In this document: piece after piece, positions 7,786-53,400 of the stretch | How the letters are laid out: each line of letters opens with the position of its first letter | Numbering within the stretch: position 1 is the first letter of the stretch | DNA from: Seison nebaliae | Lineage: Eukaryota | Assembly (NCBI GenBank): GCA_023231475.1 | Contig: JALJEE010000507.1 | Span: 1 to 55,484, forward strand | Length of the DNA: 55,484 nucleotides | Direction of reading: 5' to 3' | Position numbers and translations under genes: made by a program | The notes under the pieces: generated by a model | The model's input: only the letters and a program-made list of their open reading frames with translations | Told to the model about the DNA's origin: nothing | Database searches by the model: none

Positions 7786-7820
<35 letters not shown>

Positions 7821-17400: not shown

Positions 17401-17897
17401 GTTTAATGCTGTAGAAATATTGTATGGAACTATGGATTTTATATTCTTATAGAAGATATATACAAAATTTATATTCTTTTTACTAATACAATATTCTTTT
17501 ATACCATGGCGTATTTGTTTTTATCCCTGATATGATGTTCTTTTATGTCAATTTCTCAGATTGGTGTTATATGCAGTTAATTAAATTACAATTGACTAAA
17601 GAAATCAATTTATGGCTAACAAGGATATACACCTAACAAGGTATACCAACCGTTGATTTCTGAAAATTATGTAGGTAAGAAAAATAAAGTTAAATTGATT
17701 TGTAGATTATCTTATCCTAAATCAAAAAGTATTACACCAGGTTTTTGATCTTTTTATGTCCTGTATATAGATGTTGATTTATGTATATCATTTTTATAGA
17801 ATATGAGAACAAATATTAACAATTTAAATTTATAATTATTTACGATGAGAACAATAATAATATTAAAAAGATTGAGGATCAGATTGAAGCAAGATAT

Positions 17898-26378: not shown

Positions 26379-26415
<37 letters not shown>

Positions 26416-29113
26416 GAAAAATAATAATGTTGTTGTTCAACAACATTTTGGTTTGTTTGGACATACACAAAATGTCATAATTGAGAAAGTGATGGGAGTG
26501 AAATTGTTAAGAGAACAATTCTGTCGAGAGTTGTCGGATGTGCAGAAATGTAATACAGGAATTCAATTAGAAACAAAGAATAAATATGGACAGAATATTT
26601 TCCACATTCTCGCCTCACCTTTCGGAAAAGAGGAATTGGCATTTCATAATTCTCATTTATTCTTCACAATCGTTCAATGTTTCGGGAAGATGCAAGATAT
26701 GGGAGCGGTTCATGGAAAAGTGGAAATTCAAAAAAATATTGAATTATTCGAAATCATCAGCGACTTATTAGTTGAGAAAGATATTGATGGTATTACTCCA
26801 CTCCAATTGGCAGCGACTGCTACATCGAATACGATGTTTGAATTATATTCGAGTTATCTTCGATGGACGAATAAACATTTGGAGAATATCGGTCGTTGGG
26901 TACCACCACAACATTTCGACATAAACAAAGATGTTGTAATGAAAGACGAAAAATATTTGGAATCGTTTGAGAAATGTCAGAAATTATTAGATCGATATCA
27001 GAGTATGAATAAAAATATTGTTGATTTGCAACGTGCCACTCGAGCGAAAAAATTAGGAAGGAAATTCCGTTCGACAGATATGCCATTAGACACCGTTCTT
27101 GGATTAACAGCAGAAGTGGCGGAAGTTGTTTGGGTGAATGAGAAACCGTTAGATGTGTTAATGACGAAAGTGGATTTGAAATATGGTGGTCATTGTTATA
27201 ACATGTTTTATCGAATGCAATTAGTTCATCATTTGCAAAAGAACGATTATATTTTATTGACACGATGGGGAATGGCGGGACAAACTGGTCAACATCAAAT
27301 GACACCGTTTAATGACGAGAAAGGAGGACAAGGTGAATTTTTCAAAGTTTTTAAACAGAAAACCGGTTTCACTTGGAACGATTATATTGACGGGAAGAGA
27401 CAAGAGAATAAATATCGAGTGTTGGAAGTGAAAGAGAGATATCGTCCGACCGTTTTCGACGTCAATTGGTTCACCACTCATCAAACAGATAAAATGGGTT
27501 TTGGTTATGATCCCGAATATTTGAATGATGATCATATTGATGATAATGAAATGTTGAGATTATTTCCATTATTTTATGAGATTATTCATCATCAAGTTTT
27601 CCATCAATCATTAAGTCAAAAAATTGATTCGACCACAATGAATTTATATAAATTGACTGATGACGATTTGGATCGTGCCGATAAAATTTTAGATGAGATC
27701 ATTGAGAAATCTACAGTAAAAGAAAATACTTTCGTAACGGGTAGTTTCGATTTAACAGAATTGAAACATCGAAATGAATTGATGAGATTATCCGGTCGAT
27801 TTTATGAGATTATTCAACCACCAAATTTCCAATATGAATTGACGAAGAATATCGTAAATATTAATGACGTGAATCGAATGAGAGATATCGTCGCACATTT
27901 AAGAGAATTGAATATTGCCTCCAAAATGATGTTAGCTGCACGATATCGATATTTGATAGAGAAAAAGAATCCATTGAAAGAGATTTCTCTAATGATTTCA
28001 AATATCAAATTACGAGCGATGAATCCGGAAGAATGGCGAAGTCAATTAATTTTGAGAAGTTTCCATGGAACAATGGCATCATTGTCAAATGTTAATCGTA
28101 ATCGAGGTTTATTCGCATATAATCGATATAATCAACAATTTGAAATGGAGGATAAAAAAGAATTATTTCAAGATAAACTTTATGATCAAATTAAAAGTGG
28201 AATGGAATCATTCGAAAGAAAAACTTCTCATACTGTCGAAGCGATTTATGAGATCGATCATTTGGAACGAGAAACATTCGTCGAATCAAATGAAGATGAT
28301 AATAATTTCATGTATTTGTGGCATGGAACGAATAATGCCAATATTCTTTCAATTCTTCTTCAATCGCTCAAATGTCAACCGATAGAAGCGAATAACATTC
28401 ATGGTGATGCATTCGGTCCTGGAATTTATTTATCCGATTCCGTTCAAAAATCTTTGGCTTATTGTCAAGGGAGACAATTCAATGAATTCGCTAGTGGCCA
28501 ACGTGCATTTATTCTTTTATGTGAAGTGAATTTAGGAAAGAAAGTTGAAGAGATTGTAAATTTCCATGAATTTTTTGAAAAGATGAATGCGAAAAAACAT
28601 CCGAAAATCGTTAAAACTTTATTCAATCCTCACTCCCGTTTACAAGAGATCAATCCAACAATTAGAAAAACTCGTCCAGTCATCGATAATACGAAAGAAG
28701 AATTTAAAAATTTATTGAATCAAATCAAAATGAATGAGATGTGTCAGAAAGTGAAAAAAATAAAGGAAAAGAAATTCGATTTAGATGAGATTACATCGAT
28801 CAAAATCAAAGGACAAAGTCAACCCAATCCGGATAACGAGATAATAATCGATCATAAGATCCGTTTTAATCTAGGTCCATTAATGAAAGCGGATGGAACT
28901 CTTCCATTCAACGAATATGTCGTCAGAAATCCGAAACGAGTTCGCGTCAAATACATCGTCCAATATCGAGTGGGAGAGACACCTGATGATTTTGAGGCGA
29001 TGAAGAGAGTACAAGAAGAAAAAGAGAAACAGAAAGAAAAATTGAAGAAATTCGATTTGGATGAAATTATGAAAAATTTACAAAAAAGAATCGACGAAGA
29101 AGCAAACAGATGA
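19708..29113 (+). CDS. Ankyrin-repeat / WGR / PARP-regulatory / PARP-catalytic poly(ADP-ribose) polymerase (PME-5/tank-1-like architecture), 7 exons
   Basis: Many ankyrin repeats (TPIHCAA, RPIHIAA, TALMIAAQYGH, SALHYAAAYG, TPLHYAV). WGR domain LMTKVDL...FYRMQL...LLTRWGMAG...FKQKTG. Catalytic motifs YLWHGT, FGPGIYLSD, FILLCEVNLG and NEYVV (H-Y-E triad). Introns 24955-25019, 25093-25139, 25223-25271, 25387-25433, 25534-25581 and 25722-25775 join ORFs 19660..24981 and 25598..29113. Confidence 0.9.
26204..26413 (+). repeat. Acidic coding repeats in the PARP: (GAA)11 at 26204-26236 and a (GAT)n-rich tract at 26321-26413
   Basis: Read directly; poly-Glu and poly-Asp tracts. Confidence 0.9.
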
Positions 29114-29447: not shown

Positions 29448-32400
29448 ATGATACTCTTCTTCCTATTAATAACAATTAAAGAATTGACATCAATCCACAT
29501 CGAATTTGTTGACGATACTGAAAACTATTTGTGGATTAATGAAGGAGATTCTTTCGAATTGATCGTCTCATCAATTAATTATTCGGGAAGGAAATTCTTT
29601 AACATCGATAAAGACTCAATTTGTATTCTTGAGGTTTTCACATCTTCTATCTTGAGAACCGACATATTAAGCCTAATATTACTACTTCATATACTCCTAC
29701 TACTACTACTAGAATTGAATTGTTTTTTCTATTAATTCTCCTCAATTCCATCTCAATTTATAGTTTTAGTTGAATAGTTTTGAATAGGTACTATTGAGTA
29801 GATTATTAAGAAGTAATTGGTAAAATTAATTGATAGAATTACAAAACAGGAAATAACAAAATGAATAGAACTCTAATAGAAAATAATATTTTTGGTTAAC
29901 TATGGAAAGATTCTACTTTCCTTCACTTTCCGGAGATAGGATATTTTCAATTAGATTTAGTATATTCCAAAGATGATAAAAATTCGAAAGATGTTCTAGA
30001 AAAATATTTAGAAAAATTAGTTGGTGTTTGGATTTGTTGGTGATTTTTTTATCTCTCCACTGCTCTAGAAATAATGATTGATGATTTTAAATACTGACAA
30101 GAGGATTTAGAGAACTGGATTGATTAGAAAAAGAAGAAATAGAAACGAAAAATAACAATAACGTTTTTTTTTAGTTGAGAAGATCTGAATATTCATCAAC
30201 GATATTCTCAAGAAACAACATCGAACTGGACGATAGTGTATTCGATGATTTTTATGAAAACCATAAAATATTCTCATATGAGATCGGGAAGAGTTATCGA
30301 TATCGTTTCATATCAATTGACGATAACGAAGCAGAGAAAGAAGAAATATTTTATTTATAGTTATTTCTTTCATTAGTCGTTTAATAATTTCTCATGAGAA
30401 AATTTAGTGTTTGGTTAGAAATTGACAAAAAATATTATTTACAATCTGATGAACATTTGGAAATTATTGTTTATCCGAATGATAAGATATATGGGCAATT
30501 ATCGTTATATGGTGATGGACTGAATGATTATAATTTCGACAATGAGATAGAAATTCAATTAAGTTATTCGAATAACTTACCAGGAACAACTGTACTTCAT
30601 TTCAAATTCACCAATTCACAAATATTTCAATTATTGAAATTTCCCAACAATTTCCAAATTTCCAATAAGTTTCTTTCGGAATTCTTAATCGATTTTCATA
30701 CATTTCCATTGTCATTCCAGTTCGATAAGAATCAAAATAGAAAACATCCAAAACAAAACAATAAATTTTCGAATTGGACGAATCGATTCTCCAATTAATT
30801 TATTGGAATGTGTAATGGAATTAACGAATGTTTTCATTGAAATTAATTCTGGAAAATTTAAAAGAAAATTACCAAAATCGATTGTCAGTAAATTATTAGA
30901 AATTGAAAAAAGAATTTATTCGTTTAATATTCTCCCCAATAATCTTCCAATAACATTTCAAGTTTAATAACATTTAGTTCAAATTCACCAAAACTTTCTT
31001 TGCATAGATGAAAAATTTTTCTGTAAAAGAATCGAATGAAAAAACTCATCAAATTGTGATTTGTATTGATCAGAAATATCTGAAAGCTGAGAATGTTTTA
31101 GAAAGAATTTTAAGGAAATCCAAAGAACTCGTACTTCTACTCACCATCCGATATTCTTCTTCCTCAATTCAAGAGAATGTTTTCGAAAATTTTTTATCGA
31201 TTTATATTTAATTTAATTTTCATTTAATTTAAAAGGATTTAATTCTAAAAAATTCTCATTTTATTGAATCGATGGATATCATCGATGGGAAGAATCGAAT
31301 TAGAAACGGTATATTCGAACGGTTTATGGTAATTTTATTCAACAATATTTGTCATCAAATTGAAATGATCTTTCCCGAAGACGATCTAATCGAAGATTAC
31401 GAAATTATTTCTTTTGAAATTACATCATTACTCTCCATTAATCATCAGTCTCAATGGGAAGAGAATAGAATTTCCAATTTTAAAATTTCAGAAAATAATT
31501 CTATCGATATTACCATTCTACCAGACGGTGAGTTATTAGGTAACATAAAATTATGGTACGACAATAATATGGTAAATAAAATAAAATCAATAAATACGAC
31601 AATAATTCTATCAGATTCATATGAAAATATTCACGATATCTTGTCACTTGTTCAGACGACAGACAAAGTTTATATGGATTATTATGTGGAATTAGAATTG
31701 AAACAAATAGATAAAATTCTCATTCGAAATAAAAATTCTTATTCTCTACTAAATTATTTTCAATCTCCAAACAATTCCACATTGAAATTCATGGAACATT
31801 TCAAAAAACAATTCACAAAATTAAATGATATGAATGTTTATTTCGATCCGTCTCCGATCAATTCACTCACTGAATTATATGAGTTACAAATAAAGAATGT
31901 TCAATTTCCCAACAATTCCACAACTGATTATACTCTACCAATAATTGATGGGAATGATAAATTATATTTCATTATCACGAAATCGATAAAAGAACCGTTA
32001 TTTCAATTACAATTCATCGATCGTCAATTACTTGGCGAATTTGAGAATAAATTGAATTTAAAACTAAATTTCAAAATTAAGAAGAACCTGTTAGATATTG
32101 ATGAATTCTTCGAATGGTTTCTCATTCAAATCCAAATTACAATTCATTCCTGTCATAATAACTGGAGGTTCAATTCTTGTACAGAATCAGATTCTCCAAT
32201 ACAGAAAACGGAAAAATTAAATTTCCAACTTAATCAAACCAATCGAAACTTCCAATTAATTTTAACCCATCATCGTTTTCCTACGTCAATTCTGAAAAAT
32301 GTGACAATTCAAATTGACAACGTTCAAACAAATTTTGAGAATAGTTCGATGATTTTCTCTCAAAAATATTTTTTCATTGAAATTTTTTAGATTCATATTT

Positions 32401-35400
32401 CAATCAAATTTATCAACTAAATAAATTTTCCACAATCGAACTCACCGATCATTTTGACGAGACCAGACAATTATCTTTTATTCAATTAACTGATGATAAA
32501 TTTTCGTCTAACTGTACAATCAAATTTGATGAAACGTCAAATACTATGACGATCGTGGAGAATGATTGTTTTTTGAAAGTTTATTAATTTTCCAGTTTTA
32601 GTCTTCTAATTTTCGTTTTTCAGATTCGGTTAAAGAGATTTGGCATTTCTAGAGAATCAATTGTTAACTGGCAAATAATACCATTAAATTCTACAAATCA
32701 ATTCTCCGAAATGAATGGTACAATTAATTTTATAGAAAGTTCCAATTTATTATGATTAATAATGAAATTTTTAAAAATATTTTAAAAATAAAAATTTCTT
32801 TACAGATTCTCAATTTTCAGAGATTTTCCTTCGTGTTATCGATGACGAGATTGCTCAATTGATGAATTATTATCAATTAAAATTGAACGTGAGTGATATG
32901 TCGAGTGTCATAAATGAGAATTCGTCAGTTATTACCATTCGAATAGAAGAGAACGATTATTCCGAAGGTGTTGTTTATCTGTGTAATGGAGACGATTCGC
33001 CAATTCGGATGATGGAAAGTTGTGTAGAATATCCTCACTGTAAATATCCTACAAAAATTATTATTGGAATTTGTCGAAATCATTCGAATCTCACGACGAC
33101 TGTCGTTCAACTAGATATCTTCAATTTCGATGGACAATCAGCAACCGAAGAATTTTATGGAATTCCATTAATTGTAGAATTTGATCGATGGGAAACGGAA
33201 AGAAATATCACTCTAGTTGTTCGCGATGATGATATTTCAGAATTCGACGAATTTTTCCAATTGCGATTAACACACCCGAAAATTAACAATAATTTATTAA
33301 TAATTCAAAGGAATTTGAGTGTAATAATTATGGAGAATGATAATCCCAGTGGCTATGTAGAACTTCCTTCATATCTTCAACAAAATTCTTCGACGATCGA
33401 ATTAAGTGAATATTGTACAAATTGTGCGATGAAATCGAATGAAATCAAAATATCGATATTGAGATTTGGTGGAACGTTGGGAGAGAAAAGTATTTCATGG
33501 AAATTAATTGAAATGACGAAAAATTCAAATGAATCATTCGATTCAATTTGGAAAATGAATCAAACAGTTAACGATCTCTATCCGTCGAATGGGGAAATTA
33601 CAATTTTCCCGAAGGAAATTCAAAAATCTTTGAATATTTTCGTTAGAAATGATGAGATTTATGAGAATGACGAATTCTTCTACTTGTTAGTGAACGACGA
33701 AGGAAGTTATTTGAGAAGTACAAAAATAAAAATTTTAGCAAATGATTTTCCTATCCAATTTATTTCACCCATCGTTACCAGGAACGCTTATTTGACGGAT
33801 AAGTTTAGTCCAAATGATTTGCTGGTAAGTGAAGGTGAAATTATCGAATTAACTTTATATCGGAATTGTACTAATATTTGTGAGAGTTCTCGACAAAATG
33901 TTAAAATTCAAATTGAGCAATCCTCTACGATTGACGACGAAGATTGGGAGTTCTTGAACGAAACTATAACGCTAACAAATGAGAAAGAATTCTTAATAAG
34001 TTTCAATGAAAATGAAGAATTCGTATCATTTTCCATCAATATTCTTGATGATGATATTGCAGAATATGAAGAGATTATCATTTTTCAATTATTGGAATGT
34101 GAGGGAGATTCCATAATTTACGATCCACAACAAATTCGTGTCCATATTCAACCGAACGATGATATAGGTGGAAATATTTCTCTAGAATCAGAAAAAGAAA
34201 TTCAAATGAATGAGAACGTGGAAAAATGGATAAGATTCAAATGGAATTTACCTCAATCCACTTCGAATCATTTGGGAAATTTAAGAATTAATTGGAACAT
34301 TATCGACGCGGAAGAAAGGGAAGCGAAAAATGATTTCGTTCAATCAAGTGCTGATAATGAATATATGGAAGTTGATATTAAAATAAAAATCAAATCAAAA
34401 TCAGAAGATATTCCTGAAAAGAATGAAGAATTTATTTTCCAATTAACTTCAGTGACAGTTGTCGATTATCCAATGGTGGACGTGAAATTTGGAAATATGA
34501 CCTCGGTAAAGATCAGAATCAAAGCGAATGATAATCCCAATGGAATAATAAAAATTGTCCGAACAAATTATGAAAATTTTTTGAATGAATATGATTTGAA
34601 GTGGATAAAAAATGAATTGAATAAGAAGAATTTGAAAACGATAATTTCTTTAGAAAACAATTTCACATCATCAGTAACAATTGAAAGGAAATTAAGTTTC
34701 TTCAACAATTTATCGGTTTCTCTTTTTTTTCTTAAACATTTTCATAAATATTCAATTAAACCAGTTCTCTTGGACAATATTTCCAGATTTGAATATTTTT
34801 TATATGTTGAATGACAAATTCAAATTACTTTCACTCACTGAAGAAAAGTATTTTGTTAAGAAAACACTTTTCGGAAATATAACTACGAATAACGATTTAA
34901 AAATAACAAAAAATTCGAATGAAATCGAGAAAATATTGAAGAGGAAAGATCGATCAGTTCTATTTCAATTTAATGGAAAAAAAAGTTTATTTGTGATTTT
35001 CATAACTTATCTTATTTTTCTCAAGATAATTATGGGGAAATTAAATGGAGTGAATTAGATTTGGAGCCGAGTAAATTTTTCAGTTTTCTCTGTAAAATAT
35101 CTTCAACCTCTATCAATGACCGATTGTCAGGATATATATTTTCGTTAGTTACGAAAAAGAAACAAAACATTCATTATGATGGAACATTGAGAATGGAAGA
35201 TTCGAATAACGACTTTTTGGAGATAGAAATCGATCATGTAATAATGGCATTGGCGATTCATTTGGAGGTGGGTGAAGAGAAGAAGAGGAAAATAACAATT
35301 CAATTCCATTATTCATCTTCATTAGAATTGGAAGTTTTCCTTACTTGAAATTTATTTTATTGATATATTTATTTTGATAGATTTCCAATCCGAAAGATTT

Positions 35401-38400
35401 GTACACGATAACAACACAAGTCTCTTTTACCATTTCCGAATTGGAATGGAATGAAAAAAAGTCATTCCAATTAGCTATTTCTCTCGTACCCAATGGACGA
35501 TATATCGCTTTCCTTTTCGATCGAGAAATACAAACGAGAATTTTAGCTGCTCCTGTTCGTTTCGGGAAGACTTTGGAGAATGCCAATTTATTAATCGGTG
35601 TACGAAATCGAGAATATGAGACACATAAATTTTTGAATTTACCCCAACGACCTTTCATCATTGTGGAAGATGATGATTTGAATGAAGCAATACATCGATT
35701 CTATCAATATCCGTTTGAAGGTTATCTTCAACAATTATTCTTGTTTCATGGCGAATCGTTGAATTTCGATGATTTACAAAAATTAATCGATTGGAAACCA
35801 GAAAATCAATTTTATAATCTCATTTCAAAATACGAGACAATGAAAGAGAATGAAAAAGAGATTATTCTCCCGTTTCAAACGATCAATGATGATTTTTCAG
35901 AAAGTTTACAAATTTATCGTTTACGGATATTTCCGAACGGATGGAATGAAGAAAGTTTAAAAGAAATTAATGAGTTAAACGATTTCAATTTATTAATTTA
36001 CATTCTGCCAAACGATAATTCTTATGGGAATTTCTATCATAATTTGACGAATGTTTCGAGAAATATGGTTGAAGAAAATGAAATTTTCAATTTGACAATT
36101 CATCGATCTTCTTTCAAAGTGTCGAATCTCCCAATAAAAATATATTGGACAATTTTAACGTTGAACGATTATAATTGTATAAGTAATTGTATGGTGCAGA
36201 ATACGAATGATGATTTCGTTTCTTCTTCCGGTTTTATCGAATTTGATTTGAATGAAAAAGAAAAAGTTAAATTTTTTTCATCAAAAATTTAAAAGTTTTT
36301 TTAGAATTTAATTATAAATCCAATCAATGATTTAATACCAGAATTGAAAGAATCATTCATAATCTTATTTTCATTAACGGACAAGAATTTCATGTCAAAT
36401 TACCGAATTGATTATTCCCAAGAATTAATTAAGAAATTCAATGATGGAACCAAATCGATTCCATTCGATTATCCAATTTCTTATGAGAAAAATTTACCAT
36501 CGATTCGGATCGACATAGAAGAGAATGATTATCCGAAAGGAATTTTAACGTTTCTCGATAAAGAATCAGAAGAAGAATTGATGGAATTCGATAAATATTC
36601 AGGAAGTGATTTTGATAAATTTTTACAAAAGAATTTTGCAGATAATGATACTCCGATCGTTCTGGTGAATGAAGAAGATGGTTATGTAAAATTGACGATA
36701 ATTCGATGTCAAGGATCATTAGGTGACATCGAATTCGAATGGAGAACGGAAACGATTAATGAAAATTTATTAACAAATTTAAATAAAATGAAATCGATCG
36801 ATGGTATTGACGAAATAATGGCAGCATCATCTGAACGTCGATGGGATAATGGAACGCTTATCCTACAAGATTATCATGTTAGTAATAAATTGCGTTGAAT
36901 GGAACTGCACATGGTCAGTTGTCTAAATGTTTGTTCTAATAAACAGAAACAAATCGATATAATCGATAATTAAACGACTAGAAATGTTAAGAGAATTATA
37001 GTTAAATAGATTAAATTGAATTGTGATGATTTGATTGAGGAGCGACTGGAATATTGGACCATTTTCACTTTGTAATTCTGATATTCATTTTCATTCTCTT
37101 TTTTATTTCCATTCAAATTCTCATCACTCATTCTCTTCATTAAATTATCGTTCATTAACGATACATGTTGTGTGGCGGTGGCGATGGAAGTTTTCCTCGG
37201 AATATAAATTAGTGGAAATATCTGTTTCTCAGACGTTGTAGTTTGCGGAATTAGACTATAATCATTATTTTCTTCATTCTTCTTTTGAATATTCTTCAAA
37301 GGAATCTCACAAATAAATCGTAATTTTTGTAAACAGGACTCACTTCTCCAATAGAGATTCAATTTGTGTGACAAACACAAACAACGTCCAGTTGCGTCGA
37401 AAGTTTCAGGTGAATCTCTTCCATGGAAATTCCACCAATTCGACCATTCATCTCCATTGGAATATGGACCGGGAAACGATGAATATTTCTGACGATAAAT
37501 CCACATCCATGAATCAGCCTTCCTTATTCCTGACGTCCACCAATCTATCGAACGACTGTATCGTTGTTGACGTCGAATTTGATGTTGTGATTTTCGATTT
37601 TTTCTTTCTTTCAATTTTGGTCCTACAAAAAAATTAATTAAGAAAAAAATACTCAATTGGAAAACTTTTACGTTGGAGGAGATTCCATTGAAGGAAGTTT
37701 TGTTCTTTCAAATTCTCCACACTCACCAATTCACCATTTAACGACCAACATGCTCTTCGAGCTTGATAATAAGTTTCCGTCCATTGAGAGACGATGTAAC
37801 AGGAACCGGTAGATAAAATTCCGTTGAGGATATATTGTTTTGGAAAGTTGTTTTGGCCGATCGTTTTCAAATAATCTTCGCAAATATTTTCTTTGTTTTT
37901 ATCATAATTCTAAAGAAAGTAAAATTGTTTAGTAAAAAACTTTTAAAAATAATTAACTATATCTGTTAATTCTCTTTTAACAGTTCCGTTTGTAGATTGA
38001 TTATTATTTTGAGTAAGTTGTTCATTTCCCCTTTTCAAATGATTATTCGATCGTTGAACAATTTGATTTTTTAATGCTTCTAACTGTTCCGTTAATTTAC
38101 TTTCTTTATATTCTAAAACTTTCTGAAGTTCACCATTTACCGCTTTCGTGATAGCTCGAATGATTTTCGTGTGATCTTCCTCTGACAGTTTACGAGATGA
38201 TGTTGTTTGAGAGGAGGAGAATGAGGAGGATGATAATAATATTCGTAAATCTCTTGTAATCGAATCATGTAAATTTTCGATTGCTAAAACTGCATTAGTC
38301 TGATATTTATTTAAGTTCTTTGTCAATTCTTCTATTTGTAATAAGAGTTCGTCATTCTCTTTCTCTATTCTCCGTAAACTTTGTTTCATTTCTATAAAAA

Positions 38401-41400
38401 ATGGTTAAATAATTCTCTGAAAATGTTGTCTCGTCTCTCTGAAGCTCATGAGATTTGAGCTAGATTTTTATTATAGAAAATATTATTATTATTAACAATT
38501 TTATTGTTGTTCAATAAATCTCCATGGGAACTGGTTGTTATAACAACTTCATCATAAAAATTCTCTTCTCGATCTCTATCGAACTTATTTAGACATTCCA
38601 TTTATTCAACTTTGGAAATTCGTTCTTATTGCTATGAATCGTCCAACGACTGGTGTGGCACCAGGTACTGCTTCACGCCTACAAACGGCAAAACCTGGTA
38701 CTCGTGCAGGAAATATAACAACGGCGTTAATGGCTGATCGTCCTGTGACACGTGGTGGTCTTGGCGGTCTTAAGACTGCCATGGGTCCTGGTACTGGGGC
38801 GAATCGTTTAGTTCAAGACAAGAATTATTTTGTTAATTTAATTCGAGCTAAAACTGTCGACGCGAAAAATGAGATTGATCGTTTGAAAAAGGAGATGGTA
38901 AGAGCGAATGAAGATAATACGAATTACATGGCATATAATCGTCGTGCTGAGGAATTGACGAAAGAAGTGGAGAGTGTTCGAGGGAAGAAAGCTGATTTGA
39001 ATACCGTTGTCGATCGATTACATAGTAACTCGAATATTTCTGAATTGAAATCATCAATCGAAGAATTGAAACGGAAAATTGACAATGAAGAAAAAGAGAG
39101 TACACGAATAATTTCTCAACGAACTCGATTAGATGCGGCGGTGAATGAAATGCAGAATGAGATGGATGAATTGAATGCGAAAGAACAACATGCAGTTGAT
39201 CGTTTGAGTTATGAAGATCGACAGAAATATTTAACAATTAAAGAAAAGAATTCCGAATATACGAGTCAATTGACGACGATGTTTGGAGAAATGGAAACTA
39301 TTCGAGATGAGATTGCTGGTTTTATGGGTCGATTAGACGATACACCAGAAAAGAAGGAAGCATTAAATCTTTTTGACAAATTGAATGAATTGGAACAAAA
39401 AAAAGATTCGATGAAAAGTGACGCTGAACGATTTTCAGCTTTATCTCCAAAAGAGGAAGAAGAGAAATTATTGGCACAAGTCAAGAACGATAAAGTGGAA
39501 ATAAGTGGAATGGATGAAAAGTTTAACTTAAAATTTTTCATTGAAAAATTCAAAAAAAAATTTCAACTTTCCTTTTTAGGATTCGCTCAGTTCGAGCGGA
39601 ATTGAATAAACATGAAATGGAAGAGGAAAATGATTTGGATGATGACGGAACGGACGAGAAAGCCATTCGTCGTCGTTATGAGAAATTGCGTCGGGAAGAA
39701 GAGGAAATGGATCATTTCAATGGAGAATTTACTAATCGTCTACAGGACGCGACGGGAAATTTGAATCAAGCTCAACATAATGTGGTTCATTTATTGGATA
39801 TTTTAAGTCGAGTAGTTGAGAAGACGGATCGATCAGCAGCAGATGATGCGAAGAGTTTAATGGTGACAACAATCGAAGGAATGAATGATCAACTTCAATC
39901 TCTGCAACGCGATTTGAAGAAAATGGATCCGATGAAAGAGAAACTGAATGATGAATATAACGCTTTGGAAGGAAAGATCAAAGAGTATGAAGAAGAATTG
40001 GGAGATTATACTGACAACGAAACTATAAAAAGGAAGGCTGAAGAGAAGCGAGACAAACTAATAGAAGAGAAGGATTTATTACGAAAACGAAGAGATGAAT
40101 TTGTTCGAATGATCAATCAAGCTGAGCAAGATTTAAAACGTTTGAAAATTACTTACAATAACCATAAGATGACGAAGTCGATTGAACCGTTAGAGGAACA
40201 ATTGCAAGAACTGGAAGGGAAGAATTATTCACTACGTCAAATTATTGCTAATAAGCAATTGGCTACTGATTATGAGAAATATAAATTATCGTCGCTAGAG
40301 ATGGTGGAGGAACAACAGAAATTCTTACGTGAACATGCAGCTAATGCACCAGCTCCTGTTAAAGCAACATCATATTAACCTTTATATTCTCCATTCTCCT
40401 CCTTCTTCTTCTTATAAATATTTTGTCGACTATTATTGTTGTTGTTTGTGAAATTGATTTGAGGTGGACAATTGACGTGTTTGGGAATGATTTCTTTAAT
40501 AATCGTTCGACTTCGTCTTCCACCGTTATTCCTCGCGGCTAATAAGTGGGTAAATGACTTCTGACATTTCCCACCAATCTCGCGAACAACTAACGAATAT
40601 CGGCAGTCAACACCATCTCGAATTTCGAAAGTTTTGCCTTCTCTCTCATTCCATGAAGTTGATTCGATTCGAATCAGATAAATTGTGAGGAGTTGATGAA
40701 TTAGTAAGAGAGAATTCATTTTGAAAGAATAATCTGATGAGGAGAGAAAATGAGTAAATTTGGAAGGAGTGGAATGAGAATCGATTAAGATATGGAAACG
40801 AAGGAAAAACAAAAATAAAGAGGAAGATGGATTGACGGTTGATTCGTGTTCGACTAAAAATCATTGTGACATATCTGTAGATATTGAGGGGAGACAGCGG
40901 ATAAGGAGGAAATAGAAGGAAGTCGATCGATGACTTGATGTTTTGGCAAATTGTCGGTTACTGGTGGAGGAGGAATAGGATAAAACTAGTTGTTTTCACC
41001 ATCACATTCTCTCGCATGCACTCCTTAACAACAATGTCATGTCACTCACAACTATTATGTATATCATCATTGGTAGAAATACATCTACATATTAATTGAA
41101 TGATAAATGAGATGAAGAATTTTTTTGAGAAAATTTGTTTTACCGAACTACTATATTCCTATTACGCACTGTTATTAGTTGTATTAGAACTAGTATTGTT
41201 ATTATTTTCATTAGTTCACTATGTTCTCATCAATCGATATACAAATACTAATATTATGTTAGACAACATTATATAATTCTCTTTTTTTTAATAATTTCCT
41301 CTTCTTTCTTTTTTCCGTCTTGTTCGACTGACTGTTTTTTCCCCGACTTGTGAGTCTCATAAATATACCGCCAACGTTAACTGCCATAGTGCAAATTGAA

Positions 41401-44400
41401 ATGAAACATTCTTAACTTCTCTAACCTGTGTAACAATCCATCTCCAATTAAGAATTTTATGAAGAAACAAAGTAATATTTCGTTTTCAATCGAAGGTTGT
41501 TCCTCGTTTTCCTTAATGCATTTGAAGTGCAGAAATGAAGTTCTCATATCGAACTAACTTTTGTTACAGACAATCAATGTTCAAGTTGAAATTGTTCAGG
41601 ATATCCGGATAAAATTCGATTTACTTTTCCTAATTCTTTTTCATTGTCCTCCTCCAACTTCACTCACGTTCGTTCAACGACACAACAACAACAGCAACAA
41701 ACACGTTCGGTCGTCGAATAGTTAGGAAGTTTCGATACATTAAATTCATTTAACATTCTACATCCTTTCTCCTCAACACACAAGTGAACATATCAATTTG
41801 TTAAGTGTAAATCTATTGATGGATATTAAGTTAACGAAAGACAACTGTTACGTCATAGGAGAATAGCACGAAATTGATAGTGCACATTCTGTGCATTTTC
41901 GATGCACAAACTGTTATATGGTAAGACTTCGTTATTTTTCTTATCTATTCATTCTTCGTTTCCATGTTGCGAATAAGAGTAATAAGAAAACTTCGAGAAT
42001 TATATGTTGGTGAATGTCATCTTATTATTCTCTCCAAGTCACTGTCACGGGTGAAGGAAATTGATAGATAGAAAGTTGTTTATCTTCATTTCATAAACTG
42101 ATGAGAGAATCCTATAATTTTTCTTCGTCACTTATTCCAATAAACTTCATCCTACGAACAAATTGGAGAAAAGTTAAAATGATTTTTTTTTGAAAAGTAA
42201 AAAATAATTTCTTATTGTCGATATTATTGATAGAGAACAAACATTTTGGAATGCGAGGAAAAAGTGAAAGAATTAAAGGAAAAGATTTAATTAACTGAAT
42301 CCATTCAATGAATTTCACGTCCAGCTATTTTGAGGAGTGAACTTATTTATTTATTAGTCGGTAGTGAATACCATGACACCAAACAATCTATTATTTATTC
42401 CTTGTGCACATGACGAACATACGTGAATGTGATGTCTAGTAATGATTGGTAAGGAAATGAAAACCACAAATTATTTGTTAGCGGATGGATGATTGGCATA
42501 GGAAATATTCATTTGGAACAAACATCAGCATAATAGAAGCGGAAAATTTTCATCTGAAAAATATTGTGAAAAGAAGAAAGACAATACATTAATAAGTCGA
42601 AACAATTAAGATGATGCGTGCGTGGGGAGGCATAAGTGTTCTTTCGTCCATTCTTCTCAATTTAGCACGCTATCTCATTTAACGATAACAATAAATATGA
42701 ATTGAATTAGACGAATTGGCTGATAAACGATTCGACTCATTCAAAATAACACCATTGACCTTTGTCCTCTCTTTCATCCCCTCTGATTTATAGGCGGCAG
42801 CTGGTGAAATGATATTGGTCAATGGCGAACGGTTAACGCAAATTGTTATACCGTTGAATGACGACGATATTACCGAGGGTGCCGAAGCATTTACTGTTCG
42901 CTTATATGCTAAATCACGTAAATTATTGCACGCTTCAAAATATGAAGTTACATTGAATTGATTTATGAGAATTACATTGAAATTCCTCTAGATAATCGTC
43001 ATAATACGACCGTCGGATGATGCATATGGTATATTCCATTTAATAGTGGATTGTCATCAATCAACTACTCGCTGTGAGGAAGACGAGAGAATTGTCAATG
43101 TGACCAATTTGTCTCATGCCAAAATGAAAGTTTGTCGATTCTAAATTGAATTTAAAAAAAAAGAATTTGTTAATTTCATGTTAATCGAGATAATCACATA
43201 GATTATTTCCCACAAAATATTTCAATTAATTTATTTATCAATTAAATAATCAAGGTGCGACGTAGTCGTGGAAATTATGGTAATGTCATCATAAATTGGG
43301 AAGGAAAATTAATCAGGAAATTCGAGGAATTGCCTTCATCTCAATCAATTTCATTACAAACGATTAGTGGCACAATCGAAATTCACCACAATCGATGGTT
43401 GAGTGATGATAATATAATTGTTCCCTCGTTCGCTGATGATCGACCACATCTCGAACATATTTGGAGAGTATCAATCTATCCGTCAACCACAAACTCGCCA
43501 TCATCGACGATTGGAAGAGTTAGTCGACGTACAACATATGTTCGAATGAATTCGCAATTATATCAATCGTTTTCCTCGAGGCATTCGAGTGAATTGAGAT
43601 ATGATGAAATATTGGATGATGACCGATCATTCGACGGATATTTATCGGATGGTGAATTATTTATTGTCGTTCAGAAGAGTGAGAATGCTTATGGAATATT
43701 TCAGTTCAGCATCTCACCGTCTTCTCTCAAATCAACGAATTTATTAGACACTTGGTATCCACGTTCTCCATTAATGAATGTATTCGAAAATCATTCTCAA
43801 GGTTGTCACAACTTCTTGTCCTTTTTTATCAATCAATTTATCTTGTCATTTATTTTTCAATATTTGTGCATGTCATTCTCATTTTGACATTAAAGCAAAT
43901 GTATGTGTCGAGAGAGATGGGGGAGCATACGGTGTAGTAGATGCACAGTTAGAAGTGACATCATTCGGTTTAAATTTATTCAACTTATTCTCTTTATCTC
44001 TCAATCTCCTTCTTAATAGATACTAAAAATTACAATTATTATCGTTATCCTTCCTATATCAAAATTGCCCGTGAGAACATCGACTATCAACTTCCGGATA
44101 ATTTAGTATTACGGTTCGAAATTCCTTTTCAATTTCATTCTAACAATTCTCCCACATAGATTCAATCGACACGTCAAGGTGAATTGTTTAACAATTCAAA
44201 TAATCAATGACGAAGAAAATGAACTAACTGAAATAATTTGGTTCAAATTATCCAACGTTCAATTAATCCAATCAGAGAATAGTGAAATTATTGATCGTTT
44301 GTTTATCATTCAATCAAAAATATCATTTCTTCCACAGATGTCCCATCAATAAATGGTAGTTCGAGAACAATCGGAATTTCGTTAGTTGATGATGATGAAA

Positions 44401-47400
44401 ATAAAAAATCAAATTCTATTCAAACATATCTACGAATTGATTTGAGAGAAGATAACGAGAAATTCTCTTGTAATTTCTATCCAATCTCTTATCAGAAACT
44501 CTTAGCCAATTTACGTTACATTAATCATCAAACTGATGAGAGAAATGGTCAATTTAAATCGATGGAAAGTCAAATAAATTATGTAAATGGAAATGAATGG
44601 GGAAGTTCTTCGGAATGGAATATCCAAATGAATTATGTCAATTCATTGAATGATACATATGTTCCATTATTTTGTATCGACACAAGACACATCAATTCCA
44701 TAAATTTCACAATTTATCGATTATCTCAACAGAAAAAAAGAGTTAACATTTAGAAATTTTTTAAAATTCTCCACATTTTCCAGGTGAGCGTTCTCATATT
44801 GATTTATCCTACAGTCGTCAATTTGAACAAATCCGAGAATAATCAATCGTTAATCGATTTTGGAATATTTGGAATTGATTATTCAATCGATTCACAAATA
44901 GTCACATTGAATGAAAACGAGAATGAGAAAACATTTGCAATTAATCTCCTCAAAGAAACGTATGTCAATCATCGAATATTTGACATCAAATTTAATTCAT
45001 TAAATTCCTCAAATTTCCAATTCCATTCAAATTATCTTTTACACAATACTTTCTACAAGAACCAAATCGAAATTATCGGAAATAGTTTTTATCGATTTCT
45101 TCTCAAAAAAAATACGGGAACAACTTTCAGTTAAATTATTCTCAACCAATTTTCATTTTAAAAATTTCATTTTTCAGAATTTCATTTTCTACCCTCACCA
45201 AATGGAAATCTCAAAATTTTACAATTGACGAATAACGAATTGAATTTTCGTATAATACGTCATGGAGTTATCGAAGAATTGCAATCAATTCGATGGAAAA
45301 TTTCTACTGATCAATCTAATTCAGAGATTGAATGTCAAAATTATTTCCAGAAAATCGAAGGAATTTCCATATTTCTTTCTGGCGAATACGACCATTTAAT
45401 TCAAATAAAAACAAATAGTGAATTATTTGAAAGATTAATAGTTTTCTTTTTTTTGTGAATAAAAAATTCCATTATATTTGTAGATATGTAAAATTGAATT
45501 GATTTCCAATTTCGTTCAAGGTGATCTAGAAACCCTATTCATAATTTTACCATTTCAATCGATTAATGAGGAAATATTTCAAATTAACATAAATCGATTG
45601 ATTCTGAATGAACATAATGAAACAATTGAACTATCAATTAATGATATAAAGTTATTGGAGAATTTCTTTTTAACATTTATTAAAATTAAATTAGTAAATT
45701 TGAAGGGAAATTACTCGTCAATTTTAAATTGTCGTCAATTTCAAATTCATTCCAAACTCCTTCAGTTTAGTGAATATCTTTTCATAATTCAATCTATATT
45801 TTTTGGACAGTTTGCGGAAGAAGGAAAAGATTTTTTCAACGGAACTTTCAACAAAATATTCAATACGACTGATCGAATTATATTGGAAATTCCAATTGTA
45901 TCTGATGAAATACCTGAAATTGACGAGACTTTCGTCTTCTACGTTCATTCCATATATTTCATTCCGAACTTTTTATTCTATTATGAACAAGAAACAAAAT
46001 TTCAAGACATATTAAGAGATTGTTAATTTTAATTTCGATTTCATCAATTTATTATCATCTATCAGATCTTAGAATGGAATCATATGATTTATCTGATTGT
46101 ATGATTCATCATAAAAATTTCAAGTGTTTTCCTTTGAAATATGAAGGAAATTTATCATTCAATTTAACAATTAAAGAGAATGATAAATCTGAAGGATCAT
46201 TTCGATTGGAACCACGAATCCTTAAAAATAATAAATTAGAAATTCTTAATTCTCAAGATTCCAATAGAACTTATTATGGAATGGAGAACAACCAGAAGCC
46301 CTTGCAATTTTCTGTGAAACGATTAAGTTTCTCTTTTTATGCAATTCTATCATTTAATTAATAATTTTATTTTCAATAGATTCATTCTTTGGGAAAGTTT
46401 TCATCAAATGGAACATTTCAAGTGTCATCAATTTCACGGAAGATATCAAAAATGATGAAGGAATGATCATTTTTGAGGAGAATCAAAAAGAAAAATGTAA
46501 AACTAATATTTTCATCTTTTTACAAATTATAGTTTGTTTCCAATATTTGTATCAATTAAAACTACCTTGTCCATTTACCTTCCCCCCTACTCTTCTAAAC
46601 TTTTTGCTATTTTAATCGTTTCGTTAAAAATTATGAATTCCTTTTCTGAGTCAATTCAGGTACACATTATTTAGATCACCTGAAATATCATTAAAATATC
46701 TTCCTTGTTCACCACCTGTTTGAACTTTTGATCCGAGTGAATCTAAAATATATTTCTCCTAAACTCCCCTAAATGGTAACCCATTAATTCTAAAATCATC
46801 TTCATCCTCTTTAATTCCTTTAGGAATTTTGAAAAAATAAATTATTAGATTTTCGATATTAAATTGATATTATCGATATTAAATTATATAATTTCACAGA
46901 TTTTTCAATAATACTCAAACAAGATAATATTGCGGAATATGAAGAGGAATTTATTTTGAATATTTTCAACTTCTATTCAAATCAAAGAGAAGATTATATT
47001 AAAATTCGGATATTAGCAAACGACGGAATTTACGGAAATGTCACTTTTTCAGAAACTGATACAATTCTTTCATTATATGAAGGATTCAATATCGCAATAC
47101 CAATAATTCGACCGATCGATAATAAAATACTAAAATCGTTGACCGTCATTGAAATCGAGTGGGAAGTGAATTCAATAAATGTTACGACGATTAATATGGA
47201 GAATCATTTCGAAACTGTTTCCGGAAAAGTAGAATTATTATCCGTTTAATCTTTAAAATTCGTTGAATTTTTTTTGAAATCTTCTTCTTTAGTACATGAA
47301 TGAGTCGTATATAATATTATCAGCGATTGATGATTCTTTACCAGAGTTAAGTCGAATGTTTCATTTAAAATTGACATCGTATCGAATGAAAACGTTTAAT

Positions 47401-50400
47401 AATTCGATATTTGACAAATGTTTAAATTGTGTGAATGAAGAAAGTTAAAATTTATAAATAAAATTTAAATTTTTTTTATAATTTTAGGTTATTATCATTT
47501 ATCGGAACCGATAAAATTAACTAAATTGCCGATACGATTAATAATCGATGAGAACGATTATCCTTATGGATTGTTCGGATTCGATTTGGAACTTTTGACA
47601 ATTGAAGAGAATGTCGATAAAGTTTCGATAAATATCCATCGGTATCATGGCACATATGGGAACGTGTTGCTCAATATTGACATCTGTCCACCAAATGTCT
47701 TCAACGGAATAATTGCAAAAGAGGGAAATGATTTTTCATTTATTTCGAATAATAAAAGAATCGAATTCAAGACAAATGAACGTAATCATTCTATCATTCT
47801 TACTATAATCGATGATGATGAAATTGAAGACAATGAGGTTTCTATTAATTAATTCAACTCATTTCTCGTTGCAATGTGAGTGAATTTGAATTGTGTGTTT
47901 GTGTGTGGAAAATAAGAATTTGATATGAATAAATCGAATGAATAAGTTCAGTGAATTGCATCAGATGATGAAATTGCGTAGCTTCTCAAATTTTTTCTTA
48001 CTCGAATTATATGTGTAACTGCGGTTTTCACACCATCTACCATTCCGTCTATGATAATCAGTGCAAATTCCTTCCAGTATTTCTTACGTTCCATTTATTG
48101 ACTTAGCTGTTTGACATTGAAGCACATTGTTCTCTTTCGACATCAATTCCTTTCAATCATCATTCTCACATCATGGAACTTTTTATCAATTCTTTTGGCC
48201 ATACTCCTATCTCGTCAAATCACTTCATTTTCTTCTTTCAGTTCCTTTGTCTCCAAATCAATTATCTTACAATCCAATCATTAAATGGTACAGGCGAGAA
48301 GTTTATTGATAATAATCGATTATTGATTGAAATTCAAGATAATGATATTCAACGTCAAATAGTTTATGTGAAGAATGAATATCAGAAATTGATTAGTAAA
48401 GAAGGAAATGATGTGGTAGTGCCAATCCATCGTAATTTTGTTTCAGTTCAACCAATTTATTTATCAGTCGAAATCTCATCTATTTCTACCACTGATGAAA
48501 TAGATTACAAATTAAGGAATAAAGTTCTATTTTCATTATTTCAAATAATATCTCATATATTTCATGTTAGTTCCTGGTATTTTCACCAGATGTAACAGAA
48601 ATTTTCCTGGAAATTAAAATCATTAAAGATTCAAAGGCTGAATGGTTTGATCATATAATTCTGGTCATAAATTCAACTTCAGATAATTTCAGTTTGATAA
48701 ACAACACAAGTTTTCTAATTTTCTTTCAATTTTTAATTTTTAAAATTTGCAGTTAATATTTTTGTTGAGCCGAACGATTTCCCTTGTGGCGTCTTCACTC
48801 TTCATTCACTCGAATTGAATGAAAGAGATTACAATGAAATAGAAGGTGAAGTATTGATTGAACGAACTGTTGATGAGTGGTGTCAATTATCGATCGATTA
48901 TTCGTTCGTCGATAATCGGAATAAAACTGCACATGAATTTTTTCCATCAAATAATCTCATAAATTTTCGAATTGGAGAAAAGAAAAAGAAAATTAATTTT
49001 ATCTTCAAAAATATGGAATTCCAACATTATTTTCTGAGATATTCTGTGAAATTTATTCCAATTACAATTCCCATACCGATTTCCTTATCGAAAGGATTTC
49101 CTGGTATTTCTATCCAAGATTTTGATTATGGAAATTGGTTCGGATATGAATTACGAGAATTAGAAATTCCTCTCTCTAGTTTGAGAAAAGAAATTTATTC
49201 TTTATCGTTCTCTCCTAATAATGAGGAATTTATTTCATTTAATGGAAATGAAGCACAGATTGAGGGAGAGGCTCGTCTACCTCTTTATCGGCATCATCAA
49301 TCTTTTTGGATCAATATCAAATTAAATAAACCGAATTACATATCGTCTAAATTGTGCTTGATTCTCCAGAGTGAATTAGAGGAAATTGAAGAAAGTGACG
49401 AACCTCAAAATCTTTTATTCTTACCAATTACTCGAATGGTCATCAAAAATGAAAATCAGAAAGAATTATCTGAAATTTATTCATTAAAAATTCTTAATAA
49501 CAATTATTTAATAATTCATTTATCAGGCAAATTAAATTTTTATAAATGGAATAATTATTCCTTCCAATTCACCACCACTATCGACTTCAATGACCAAGTG
49601 ATATCCATAAAAGAAATCGGAGGATCAAATCAATTTTTAATTTACTCTCAAAATCATCATCGATATCAATTAAATTTATTCGGAATGAATAATAGTCATT
49701 GGATATTGAATGACGTGAAATCGTTCGATTGTAAAATGGTTTGGGAGGTGGATAAGATAAAATTAAATTATTTTATAATCGCCTTTGATTCATGTTCGAA
49801 GCAAATTGAAGTTATTATTTGAAAAAAAAATTTCTAATATTTTTTTTTAGTGGTCCAAATTGGAAAATGACAAATTCACCACCTTCAATTTACTCGATAA
49901 ACAAACGGATATTATATCAATCCAAATGATAAATTTAAATGATCTTTCATTCGTCATTTTTGTCTATTCCAACAGCAACGGAACTGAAGGAAAAATGAAG
50001 TTTTCTTTTTTTCTTTTCAAACAAATTTTAGACAACAATCGTTTTAGTTTTGATTTATTCGAAATCGATTATAATGAAAAGAATTTAAACGAATTTTTGA
50101 TAACATCAACTGAAATCGATGAAGTGACGAGATCGGATTTAGTTCAAATGGAACAACTTCAGTTTTTACTTCTCTTCAATGAAGAGAGGAAGATTTTAAG
50201 TGTCTATGAAATCGATCTCCAAAATGAACATATTCAAATCAATTTCATCACTTTCTTTACAGATATTATTCATTTTCAAACATTTATTCGTAACAAACAA
50301 TTTTATCTTTTTGGAAAACTTGAAAAATATTCAGTCTTGTACAAATATGAAGAAAAAGTAAAAAAATTCATATCTCTAAAAACGTTCGAATCATTTAAAC

Positions 50401-53400
50401 GATTTTTAACAATTTCAATCGATCATAAAGTTTTCATCAAATTTTTTCTTCAAACTTAATTCTTTAACTCTGTGAAAAGACTACTGTGAAAGTGACGAAC
50501 GATTTTCAACAATCGAGAACTAATTCTGAAATGATGGAAATTTCAATTTTGAAAAATTATAGTTTACATTCGGGATATCTTTTCAAGAAGTTTTAATTAA
50601 AATTCATTAATTAAGTATAAAAAACAATTTTATTTCGAAGGAATTTATTTTTGTCATCCGAAATGGCTGAATTAGATATACCGATTAATATTTTACCATT
50701 GCCAATTTATCAATCAATTCGAATAGTTATCAAAGAGAATGATTCAATTTTGAGTAATTTCATCAAAGTTTCAAGTTGTCGCAATTGTCTAATGAAGGAA
50801 GGTGCTGATATGTCAATATCGACAAGATTGGGAAATGTTTTTAATAATGAAATGTTGGAAGATAATATGGTGGGATTAGACGCAAAAGACAGAAAGATTT
50901 ATGTTTCCACTGATTTCTTTACTAGAGATCGAATGGAATATATTGGAATTCCAATAAGAATCGTCAGGTGGAATTTGAACGATGAAAAAGAGGAGATAAG
51001 AATCAGATGGAAACTTTCTTCAATTTCTCCTATCAATTTAGAGAATTCGATTCAATTGAAATTAGAAGGAAATACAGAAATTATGAGAAAAAATGAAATT
51101 GAGAAAATTTTCATTATTTATCTCAAAGATTTGAAATTGGATGGAAACCATGAGGATTATGTTCCATTTCGATTTCTGAGAATTATATACGAATATTATT
51201 CAACGAACCATAAGAAAATATCTGCTGATAATAACCAACAAATAATTTTGACACCATTATACAATCCAACTGGAGTGTTGACGTTAAATAGAAATTCATT
51301 TGTTATTCGTCGAATTTTGGATGAAACCGTCTCGAAATCCGTAAATGTTGAAGTGACCATATATCGAGATCAGGGCACAAAAGGAAATATTCAAATTTCT
51401 TATGAAATATTTAATGAATTAGAACCGGCAGATCGACGAGAAAGTTTTGTAACGATGATCGATAATCAGAAAATTATCAATTTGAAATTTCAATTACCAA
51501 TCGATAAAATTTCGAATTTGAACGAAAAGGATATTTTCTATAGACTAACTTTAACCAATGTCCAATTAATATCAAAACAATCATCGAATGAAGTGCCACC
51601 AGATATCTTGAGGAATATTTATGGTGACGAATTTATCAATATTCATTTATTGACGGAAATTGATACGATTCAAATGTCTCAAATAACTTTCTATGAACAA
51701 ATGGATATCGTTCATGATTTTAATGATGCCATTAGTTTTTCATTGAGAAAAACGGGTAATAAGAAATGTGAAATCATTTGGATGATCGTTGGAGAGAAAA
51801 GTGAACGAATATTCTCAACAACTAACAATTCTATTACAATGAGAGAAATGGATAAAAATTATCATGTGGATAACATAAAAATTCTTTTAAAAAATGAGTC
51901 AAATATTTTCCATATAAATCTTTATTCACTTTCACCTTATTGTCAAATTGGGAAATATTCGATGAAGTTCCGAATAAAACATGGTAATTATAAGGCTGGA
52001 ATATTCTCGTTGAAATATAACAGTAATCGACAAGTGAATGAAGGAGAGAAAGTTTATTTATCAGTCAAACGGATATCGGATTTCAATGGACGAGTTAAAG
52101 TAACTTGGAAAGCGGAACCTGCAGAATTGGTGAATAATTTGATGGGATCATTAATTTTCGAGAATGGAATCAAACTGGTTTATTTTAATATAAAAACTGA
52201 GAATTTGAAAAAGATTGATGATAATCGACGGATAAGAATCGAATTAATCGATATTCGAATGATGGATGAAGGTAGTAATCTTATTCCGTTAATTGACGAT
52301 GTTGAACGATATGTTTATGTTCCATTAACGAATGATGATGGATTGGATGATATTATTTATATTCCATATAACCGACGAATGATAAATTATTACATGGAAA
52401 ATAGACAACTTGAAATTTCGATAAAACGAGGTGCAAATTTATTAAATATAAATCCGTTAATGGTTTATTGGCAAATATCACCAGCATTATATGTGATCAA
52501 TGAAAATGATGGTCATTTCATTTTCAATTCTAATCAATCTGAATATTCCTTGATGATAAATGTCACTTCATTCTCAAAAGAGTTTCTTGAGACAATTCTC
52601 CAATTTCAATTGATAAAAACCGAACCGAAAATATCGAATGTGTTCGATAAAAATCTACAAACAATTCCCAATTCTCGAACGGGAACTATTGCCCTAAAAG
52701 AGAATGTGTCTGGACAACTTGTACAATTTTCATTTAGTGAATCCATCATTCATTCATCCACTAGTTCAATAATGGTGATATCGATCGAAAGAACAGGAAA
52801 TATTTCCAATTCGATTATTGTCAATTATGAGAATTATGATGTGACTGCTAATGAGAAAGTTGATTATATGTTAATGCAGTCAACATTGACTTTCGGAAGA
52901 AATGTGAAGAAAAGTTTTTTAATATTGAAAATTCTTCATTTTCCCCATCAATTAATTCAACGACAACTTTACCTCCTTCTACGACTAATTTCCGCTTATT
53001 CCATTGAAACGAATACGCCAATTCAAATTGGAAAATTAAATAATCATCGAATTTGGATTTCATCTTTATCTGAATCTTCTCCAATTCCTTCAACTACTTC
53101 AATTTATTCAACTACTTCAACTACTTCGATTTCTTCAACTACTTCCACTAATAATTTTCCGTCGACAACGAGTGAGGTAATTGAGATAGAGAAATTGTGG
53201 ATCATCCAATTTGAAACGAGATGTTACGATTCGATTTCTATAGCAAATACGGATGATACGACTTGTATTTATGTAGAATTGGCTGCAACTCGAAATATTA
53301 AATTGACACATCCCTATGTCCATCGACCCATTTCTTTATCCGTCGTTTTAAGTACACAAGCAATCGGTGATTCATATGCTGAAACGATACAGTTACCCGA

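Follow-up and report, generated by a model that had tools for sequence, protein, structure and literature searches.

Does the genome of Seison nebaliae (~46 Mb, two strains; PMC8351084) hold a gene inside an intron of a gene that itself lies inside an intron? Here, we address this question for a stretch of AT-rich animal DNA of 55,484 nucleotides (nt) (GCA_023231475.1, contig JALJEE010000507.1, positions 1 to 55,484 of the forward strand; hereafter, the window), for which an original prediction had proposed that ADGRV1 on the plus strand contains a C-type lectin gene on the minus strand that, in turn, contains IFT74 on the plus strand. We find that a three-level nest, with IFT74 (+) inside an intron of a lectin-like gene (−) that itself occupies an intron of an ADGRV1-like gene (+), is the best reading of this locus and probably the correct one. 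By gene model, the coding sequence of IFT74 (38634-40378) lies inside the inner intron (38392-40379), and that of the lectin-like gene (36970-40719) inside the outer intron (36878-42793), with spacers of ~92 nt between the ADGRV1 donor and the lectin stop codon and of 1 nt between the IFT74 stop codon and lectin exon 1. On re-checking, the coordinates of the original prediction were all correct (Table 1).

Table 1. Coordinates of the nested genes, their introns and associated elements in the window
Feature	Position	Strand	Description	Basis
Outer intron (predicted)	36878-42793	+	5916 nt, phase 0, GTT...AG	Best of 660 in-frame joins
ADGRV1-like gene, 5' half	29448-36877	+	Calx-beta repeat gene, ~2140 aa	Stop-free chain from ATG 29448, GTT..AG introns only
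Last exon before outer intron	36305-36877	+	First half of Calx-beta repeat	Model positions 9-45, 16.2 bits
ADGRV1-like gene, 3' part	42794-55484	+	At least 3582 aa, frame open at window end	Exons of database model P0007
IFT74	38634-40378	+	561 aa, one 59-nt intron (39521-39579)	Homologs; stop codon 40376-40378
Two tandem X-box (RFX-type) motifs	38518-38531, 38534-38547		86-116 nt upstream of IFT74 ATG	
Lectin exon 1 (proposed)	40380-40719	−	113 codons plus one base, three cysteines, candidate signal peptide	Open reading frame length, coding score, donor
Lectin intron 1 (proposed)	38392-40379	−	1988 nt, phase 1	Splice scores, in-frame join
Lectin exons 2-4	38391-37958, 37909-37666, 37622-36970	−	Coiled coil, C-type lectin-like domain, C-terminal hydrophobic tail	
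Non-coding blocks alignable in diverged lineage	41782-41916, 41965-42068, 42371 to ~42660			Low-depth contigs with frameshifting indels

Several lines of evidence argue that the outer intron is well supported and very likely genuine, with one Calx-beta repeat that appears to be completed only through this join. First, the plus-strand frame halts at 36877 before GTTAG and reopens in phase 0 at 42794 after TTATAG. Second, the repeat is indeed cut mid-way at 36877, as had been proposed. Against a profile hidden Markov model (HMM) of 24 repeats taken from a fish ADGRV1-type protein, the left-hand exon (ending at 36877) aligns to model positions 9-45 (16 bits) and the right-hand exon (beginning at 42794) to positions 57-97 (24 bits); the joined exons together with the next exon cover positions 9-120 at 56.5 bits. 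Moreover, the junction restores the DY-x4-G spacing of the repeat. Third, when all in-frame GT-AG joins that leave at least 25 open codons were scored (660 in total), 36878/42793 ranked first (47.0 bits); each of the top five joins ends at either 42793 or 42800, and no acceptor located before 42700 gave more than 23.4 bits. Neither the Calx HMM rows nor the join scoring revealed an orphan Calx half-repeat inside 36878-42793.

Two alternatives to this join were considered and rejected, i.e., a short intron with an acceptor shortly downstream of 36878, for which all nine candidates scored ≤2.5, and a second half-repeat elsewhere within the outer intron, for which neither the HMM nor the join scoring gave a candidate. 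A fourth gene in 40860-42790 was also rejected; the longest open reading frame (ORF) there spans at most 103 codons with no convincing coding window, and the region gave no Rfam or transfer RNA match and no significant fold among 10 strands tested.

A number of observations speak against the outer intron. On a splice-site matrix trained on 27 local introns (24 from the public model P0007 and three from IFT74 and the lectin gene), its donor scores 2.1, near the floor of the training range, and its acceptor 0.4, under all 27 training sites and at rank 60 of 303. Two AATAAA motifs lie just past the donor (36884 and 36938). The remaining objections apply to both long introns: the public models skip them, with P0009 beginning at 38389 and P0007 splicing 40357 to 42794, and both junctions are predicted from DNA.

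The outer gene is ADGRV1-like, judging from its domain content, and the part of the prediction that named it ADGRV1 is unproven, with the GAIN and 7TM domains beyond the window. Its Calx-beta array extends on the plus strand over 32636-54646 with 25 HMM rows >5 bits, some of which are parts of one repeat; nine lie to the left and 16 to the right of the outer intron. The array is interrupted at ~34550-36050 and ~49000-51270, and both gaps are in the expected order. In Pfam, Calx-beta is above cut-off at 32775-34811 in the 5' half, and the first exon of the 3' part (42794-42946), which carries the second half of the cut repeat, matches Calx-beta positions 59-98 in 42794-42958. The 5' half opens with a hydrophobic N-terminus, the exon boundaries upstream of 30700 being uncertain, and the two halves total at least 5720 aa. 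For comparison, human ADGRV1b has 6306 aa, and human ADGRV1 has 35 Calx-beta repeats (PMC13729602). The two genes have in common a predicted signal peptide, a long Calx-beta array and a similar total size; by contrast, LamG and EPTP gave no Pfam or phmmer match in the ADGRV1-like gene, and the LamG and EAR regions of the fish protein gave no significant match to the window. Because the window closes at 55484 within an open frame, GAIN/GPS, 7TM and the PDZ-binding motif would lie beyond it. The fish ADGRV1-type protein is the sole homolog found besides the window's own model, at ~23% identity over 9% of the query. The association of ADGRV1 with cilia comes from vertebrates.

By contrast with the outer gene, the identity of the innermost gene is clear from homology: IFT74 has six homologs at E-values of 2e-37 to 9e-31, four of which bear IFT names, with 26-32% identity over ~540 aa, and the C-terminus of its unfused frame ends together with theirs. 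The public model P0007 (4137 aa, 38634-55484) instead leaves IFT74 by a donor at 40358 into the 3' half of the ADGRV1-like gene. This donor scores 0.9, under all 27 training donors, and the IFT74-ADGRV1 fusion, which is hard to rationalize at the protein level, is probably an annotation error.

As predicted, the coding sequence of IFT74 and its X-boxes lie within 38392-40379. However, containment holds for the coding sequence and not for the transcript. On the minus strand, the lectin donor GTTAATA (40379-40373) is complementary to the last codon and stop codon of IFT74. Any 3' untranslated region (UTR) of IFT74 must, therefore, overlap lectin exon 1, and with one base between the IFT74 stop codon and this exon only the coding sequences are strictly nested. 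The overlap is probably within the 15% exon-overlap tolerance of PMC8527503. No AATAAA for IFT74 is present in 40379-40720; because only two of six other stop codons have an AATAAA within 150 nt, its lack is weak evidence.

Of the published X-box patterns, the degenerate one, with 76 matches in the window, accommodates both motifs, and the most restricted one, with four matches, accommodates one of them; an X-box motif alone is not predictive of an RFX target (PMC2375033). They are near-palindromic and lie between the IFT74 ATG and the ATG at 38389 in the lectin gene. A contig from a diverged lineage fails to align across 38399-38632, the region holding them. Elsewhere in the window, a gene with a CCDC92 domain (Pfam PF14916, 12710-14062) also has an X-box-like motif, at 12530-12543, ~170 nt upstream.

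Exons 2-4 of the middle gene, read from ATG 38389, are identical to the public protein P0009 (442 aa), which consists of helical coiled-coil segments, a lectin-like domain and a C-terminus in which the last 19 residues are hydrophobic. Pfam Lectin_C is matched over positions 3-106 of 107 at 19.2 bits, below the 22.6 cut-off, and a PDB search gave 43 matches, most of which are C-type lectin-like domains (CTLDs; best E-value 0.0027). An Atlas score of 0.82 is a lead only, and the single-sequence structure model of P0009 (predicted local distance difference test score 42.7) was too poor for structure searching. CTLDs that bind calcium and sugar carry the motifs EPN or QPD, and WND; none of these was seen by eye in P0009. 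The gene is best called lectin-like, and sugar binding is not implied. Among the 31 of 49 differences to the diverged lineage that are listed for exon 2, 24 are at third positions.

The inner intron is likely genuine on the basis of its sequence features, less securely so than the outer intron. The proposed exon 1 on the minus strand (340 nt, phase 1) ends in AAG/GTTAATA and joins TTTTATAG/AA ATG at 38391 in frame, giving together with exons 2-4 a stop-free model of 556 aa. The donor (7.1) ranks first of 14 in the ORF and fifth of 222 in the region, the acceptor (9.0) ranks first of 28 locally, and both are inside the range of the 27 local introns. The length of the exon was reached in 55 of 5000 shuffles as an ATG-initiated ORF and in seven of 5000 as an open frame. 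Its coding score is +27.6 bits in frame, resembling those of exons 2 and 4, compared to −22.2 and +3.8 bits off frame. Among 26 in-phase ATG-to-GT candidates, this exon is the longest, and just one candidate is located such that it precedes the IFT74 start, with 23 codons that are hydrophilic. In the diverged lineage, a contig aligns over 40510-40710 (201 nt) with 34 differences and no gaps, and the flanking non-coding pieces carry indels.

The protein models point in the same direction. The 556-aa model has hydrophobic stretches at both ends only, as expected of a secreted, glycosylphosphatidylinositol- or tail-anchored protein; the 442-aa form lacks the hydrophobic stretch at the N-terminus but retains the lectin domain and the terminal hydrophobic tail, which would place a disulfide domain in the cytosol. 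Thus, only with the exon starting at 40719 does the lectin gain a candidate signal peptide that matches its hydrophobic C-terminal tail. The original prediction called this exon a signal-peptide exon; its N-terminus is moderately hydrophobic, but hydrophobic N-termini are frequent among chance ORFs here, and nearby ones score equally, which counts against the assignment. Further points on that side are that exon 1 has no homolog among 1.84 billion representatives or in the ESM Atlas, Pfam or PDB, that its last 82 nt are without coding signal, and that a non-coding window scored 25 bits, the coding model thus being partly G+C-driven.

The most serious competitor is single nesting, which we regard as rather unlikely. 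Here, the outer intron is real, the lectin gene begins at ATG 38389 and is oriented head-to-head with IFT74, a 244-nt X-box promoter lying between the two, and the ORF at 40719-40375 is a separate small secreted gene or a chance occurrence. The start of P0009 at this ATG, the near-palindromic X-boxes between the two start codons and the lack of an exon 1 homolog are all in its favor. An AG two bases before ATG 38389 would also suit a spliced leader, a further point against the inner intron, and in a variant of single nesting a leader is possibly added there; spliced-leader trans-splicing occurs in some rotifers. On the other side, the 442-aa lectin would have a hydrophobic tail and a lectin domain with no hydrophobic N-terminus, the end of the upstream ORF coincides with the best donor along its length, in the correct phase, and gene finders often fail on nested genes (PMC10282587).

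Single nesting is also favored by a hint that exon 1 is inverted in the diverged lineage. Misassembly was rejected because one contig, which may be the source of this DNA, spans 34000-45000 unbroken and contigs from two other runs tile it with overlaps. Five sequencing runs match this DNA and all behave as DNA; a suspected RNA run covers introns evenly. Low-depth contigs that are ~83-88% identical represent a second lineage, and in one of these (run X5, 3.9x) position 40426 (+) is followed by 40968 (−), such that 40440-40968, including most of exon 1, looks inverted relative to the end of IFT74. A 9-mer is present in inverted orientation at 40435 and 41035, near both ends of the apparent inversion, and might have given rise to a chimera in the library or to a genuine inversion. 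Both observations tell against the nest. However, the contig has 54 unaligned letters compared to the ~73 required for a clean inversion, and this single low-depth record is present in one of five runs; for these reasons a chimera is favored. The same lineage retains alignable non-coding blocks in the outer intron (Table 1), next to which the DNA is not alignable. They gave no Rfam match and fold z-scores above −2, and are likely to be regulatory DNA lying upstream of the lectin gene.

Returning to the double nest, we suggest that three ordinary protein genes are nested on alternating strands, with IFT74 in the first lectin intron and the lectin gene in the 5.9-kb intron of the ADGRV1-like gene. 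The lectin product is predicted to be secreted, membrane-anchored and C-type lectin-like. Each gene likely has a separate promoter, that of IFT74 being of the RFX/X-box type. Most likely, the layout arose as a by-product that is tolerated: genes would have landed in long introns, opposite-strand nesting would have been retained because it avoids mis-splicing, and genome compaction would afterwards have trimmed spacer DNA. We infer this history, as well as a read-through that it entails: with IFT74 in sense orientation within the ADGRV1 precursor mRNA, transcription of the latter would need to pass the IFT74 promoter and 3' end. The acceptor of the IFT74 intron at 39579 scores 10.4, far above the true outer acceptor, and its use would shift the frame. 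We suggest that this 59-nt intron is likely spliced first from the ADGRV1 precursor, removing the stronger decoy acceptor, and that its quick removal together with a weak poly(A) signal of IFT74 would let the long intron be completed.

The original prediction went further and suggested that nesting may couple or mutually exclude expression of the three genes. This is possible but unsupported here, and most mammalian host/nested pairs have neither a positive nor a negative expression relation (bioRxiv 2023.05.02.539096). A specific form of this idea is that, in ciliated cells, RFX-driven transcription of IFT74 keeps down the long form of the lectin through colliding polymerases and through the complementarity of IFT74 mRNA to the lectin donor and exon 1, which we consider improbable. 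It would fit the exact antisense position of the stop codon and 3' UTR of IFT74 relative to the lectin donor and the end of its exon, the tandem X-boxes lying inside both introns and the proposal that interference shapes nested gene expression in Drosophila (PMC5174743); however, anti-correlation is rare among the mammalian pairs (bioRxiv 2023.05.02.539096), and compaction alone accounts for the IFT74/lectin overlap. Similarly doubtful is that compaction turned a passive nest into a switch, such that the IFT74 mRNA masks the donor of its host and RFX activation stops the secreted lectin form, or that the internal promoter also feeds a short lectin or an IFT74-led transcript of the ADGRV1-like 3' part; such a switch, itself unlikely, would operate on a spliceosome preferring GTT donors.

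The least probable alternative, that the ADGRV1-like halves are separate, the 5' half ending by intronic polyadenylation at ~36900-36970 and the 3' half being spliced from the IFT74 donor at 40358, would draw on the existing IFT74-led model P0007, the weak outer splice sites and the two AATAAA motifs beyond the donor, but would leave each product with half a Calx-beta repeat, depend on a donor below the training range, run counter to the IFT74 homologs, whose C-termini coincide with that of the unfused frame, and place a cytosolic coiled coil, which without a signal peptide cannot lead a large extracellular region, at the front of the 3' product. Human ADGRV1 does have truncated and internally initiated isoforms (PMC13729602), and minor truncated or chimeric ADGRV1-like forms could coexist with the long form.

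Double nesting had been described as rare in animals, which overstates the case: a handful of Russian-doll nestings are reported in Drosophila (PMC5174743), and in the ctenophore Hormiphora californensis 484 of the 2357 nested genes have this arrangement (PMC8527503). The ctenophore shares with our locus the placement of one intronic gene within an intron of another; it differs in that its nests are backed by full-length cDNA and in that many are transposon-flanked. Our locus has almost no space for transposons, and introns in this genome are mostly 40-59 nt. The Drosophila cases have the same topology, and interference is proposed as a constraint there. By contrast, the innermost position here is taken by a conserved, intron-containing IFT gene that shares its strand with the outer host and has a 3' UTR that must overlap an exon of its own host. 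In D. melanogaster, 71% of nested genes are on the opposite strand, attributed to selection against mis-splicing (PMC5174743); thus, strand alternation here follows the usual bias. The 80-Mb genome of the glass sponge Aphrocallistes vastus, another compact animal genome with nesting, has 2432 nested genes, identified genome-wide and RNA-backed, and automatic annotation misses or mis-joins nested genes there (PMC10282587); the consulted part of this paper makes no mention of double nesting. We found no report of gene nesting in rotifers or seisonids in the literature listings searched, and "nested" is absent from the main text, as distinct from the supplements, of the S. nebaliae genome paper (PMC8351084). 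The locus is probably an unannotated new instance of a known arrangement. If so, double nesting persists in a ~46-Mb animal genome with introns near 45 nt, and two public models would be corrected, i.e., the IFT74-ADGRV1 fusion and the lectin without a signal peptide. The nest alone sets up no new regulatory principle; rather, the locus offers a small, clean test of reading through a same-strand gene two levels down.

The short introns elsewhere in the locus, to which the original prediction had drawn attention, are borne out: 23 of the 27 scored introns are 40-59 nt, and the others are 94, 125, 403 and 404 nt. The two ~400-nt introns, both in the 3' part of the ADGRV1-like gene, hold no gene that we could find, and longer introns are thus not always gene containers. 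One (46497-46899, 403 nt) has, on the minus strand, a stretch that resembles interrupted coding sequence, and the other (47838-48241, 404 nt) a possible 14-codon exon at 47982-48023. Beside its tiny introns, the same gene has an exon of 4.4 kb at 50642-55030.

The introns also share an unusual donor. T occupies donor position +3 in 26 of the 27 introns, giving GTT in place of the usual GTR; examples are found in 42947-55073, 39521-39579 and 37957-37910. In a model-free check between consecutive ORFs, the 39- to 52-nt solutions were likewise GTT. We found no description of this preference in the literature listings searched. It may reflect a changed U1 or U6 small nuclear RNA and may merit more attention than the nest.

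Elsewhere in the window, a PI3K-related kinase of 2879 aa is encoded by a single exon at 3430-12069, and an ankyrin-WGR-PARP gene at 19708-29113 has an open frame of 1773 codons, again a very long exon beside tiny introns. Between them, at 14430-16240 (plus strand) and 17068-17520 (minus strand), lie two similar Lys/His-rich, Gln-rich ORFs that end in a hydrophobic segment and a small secreted-looking Gly/Met-rich protein.

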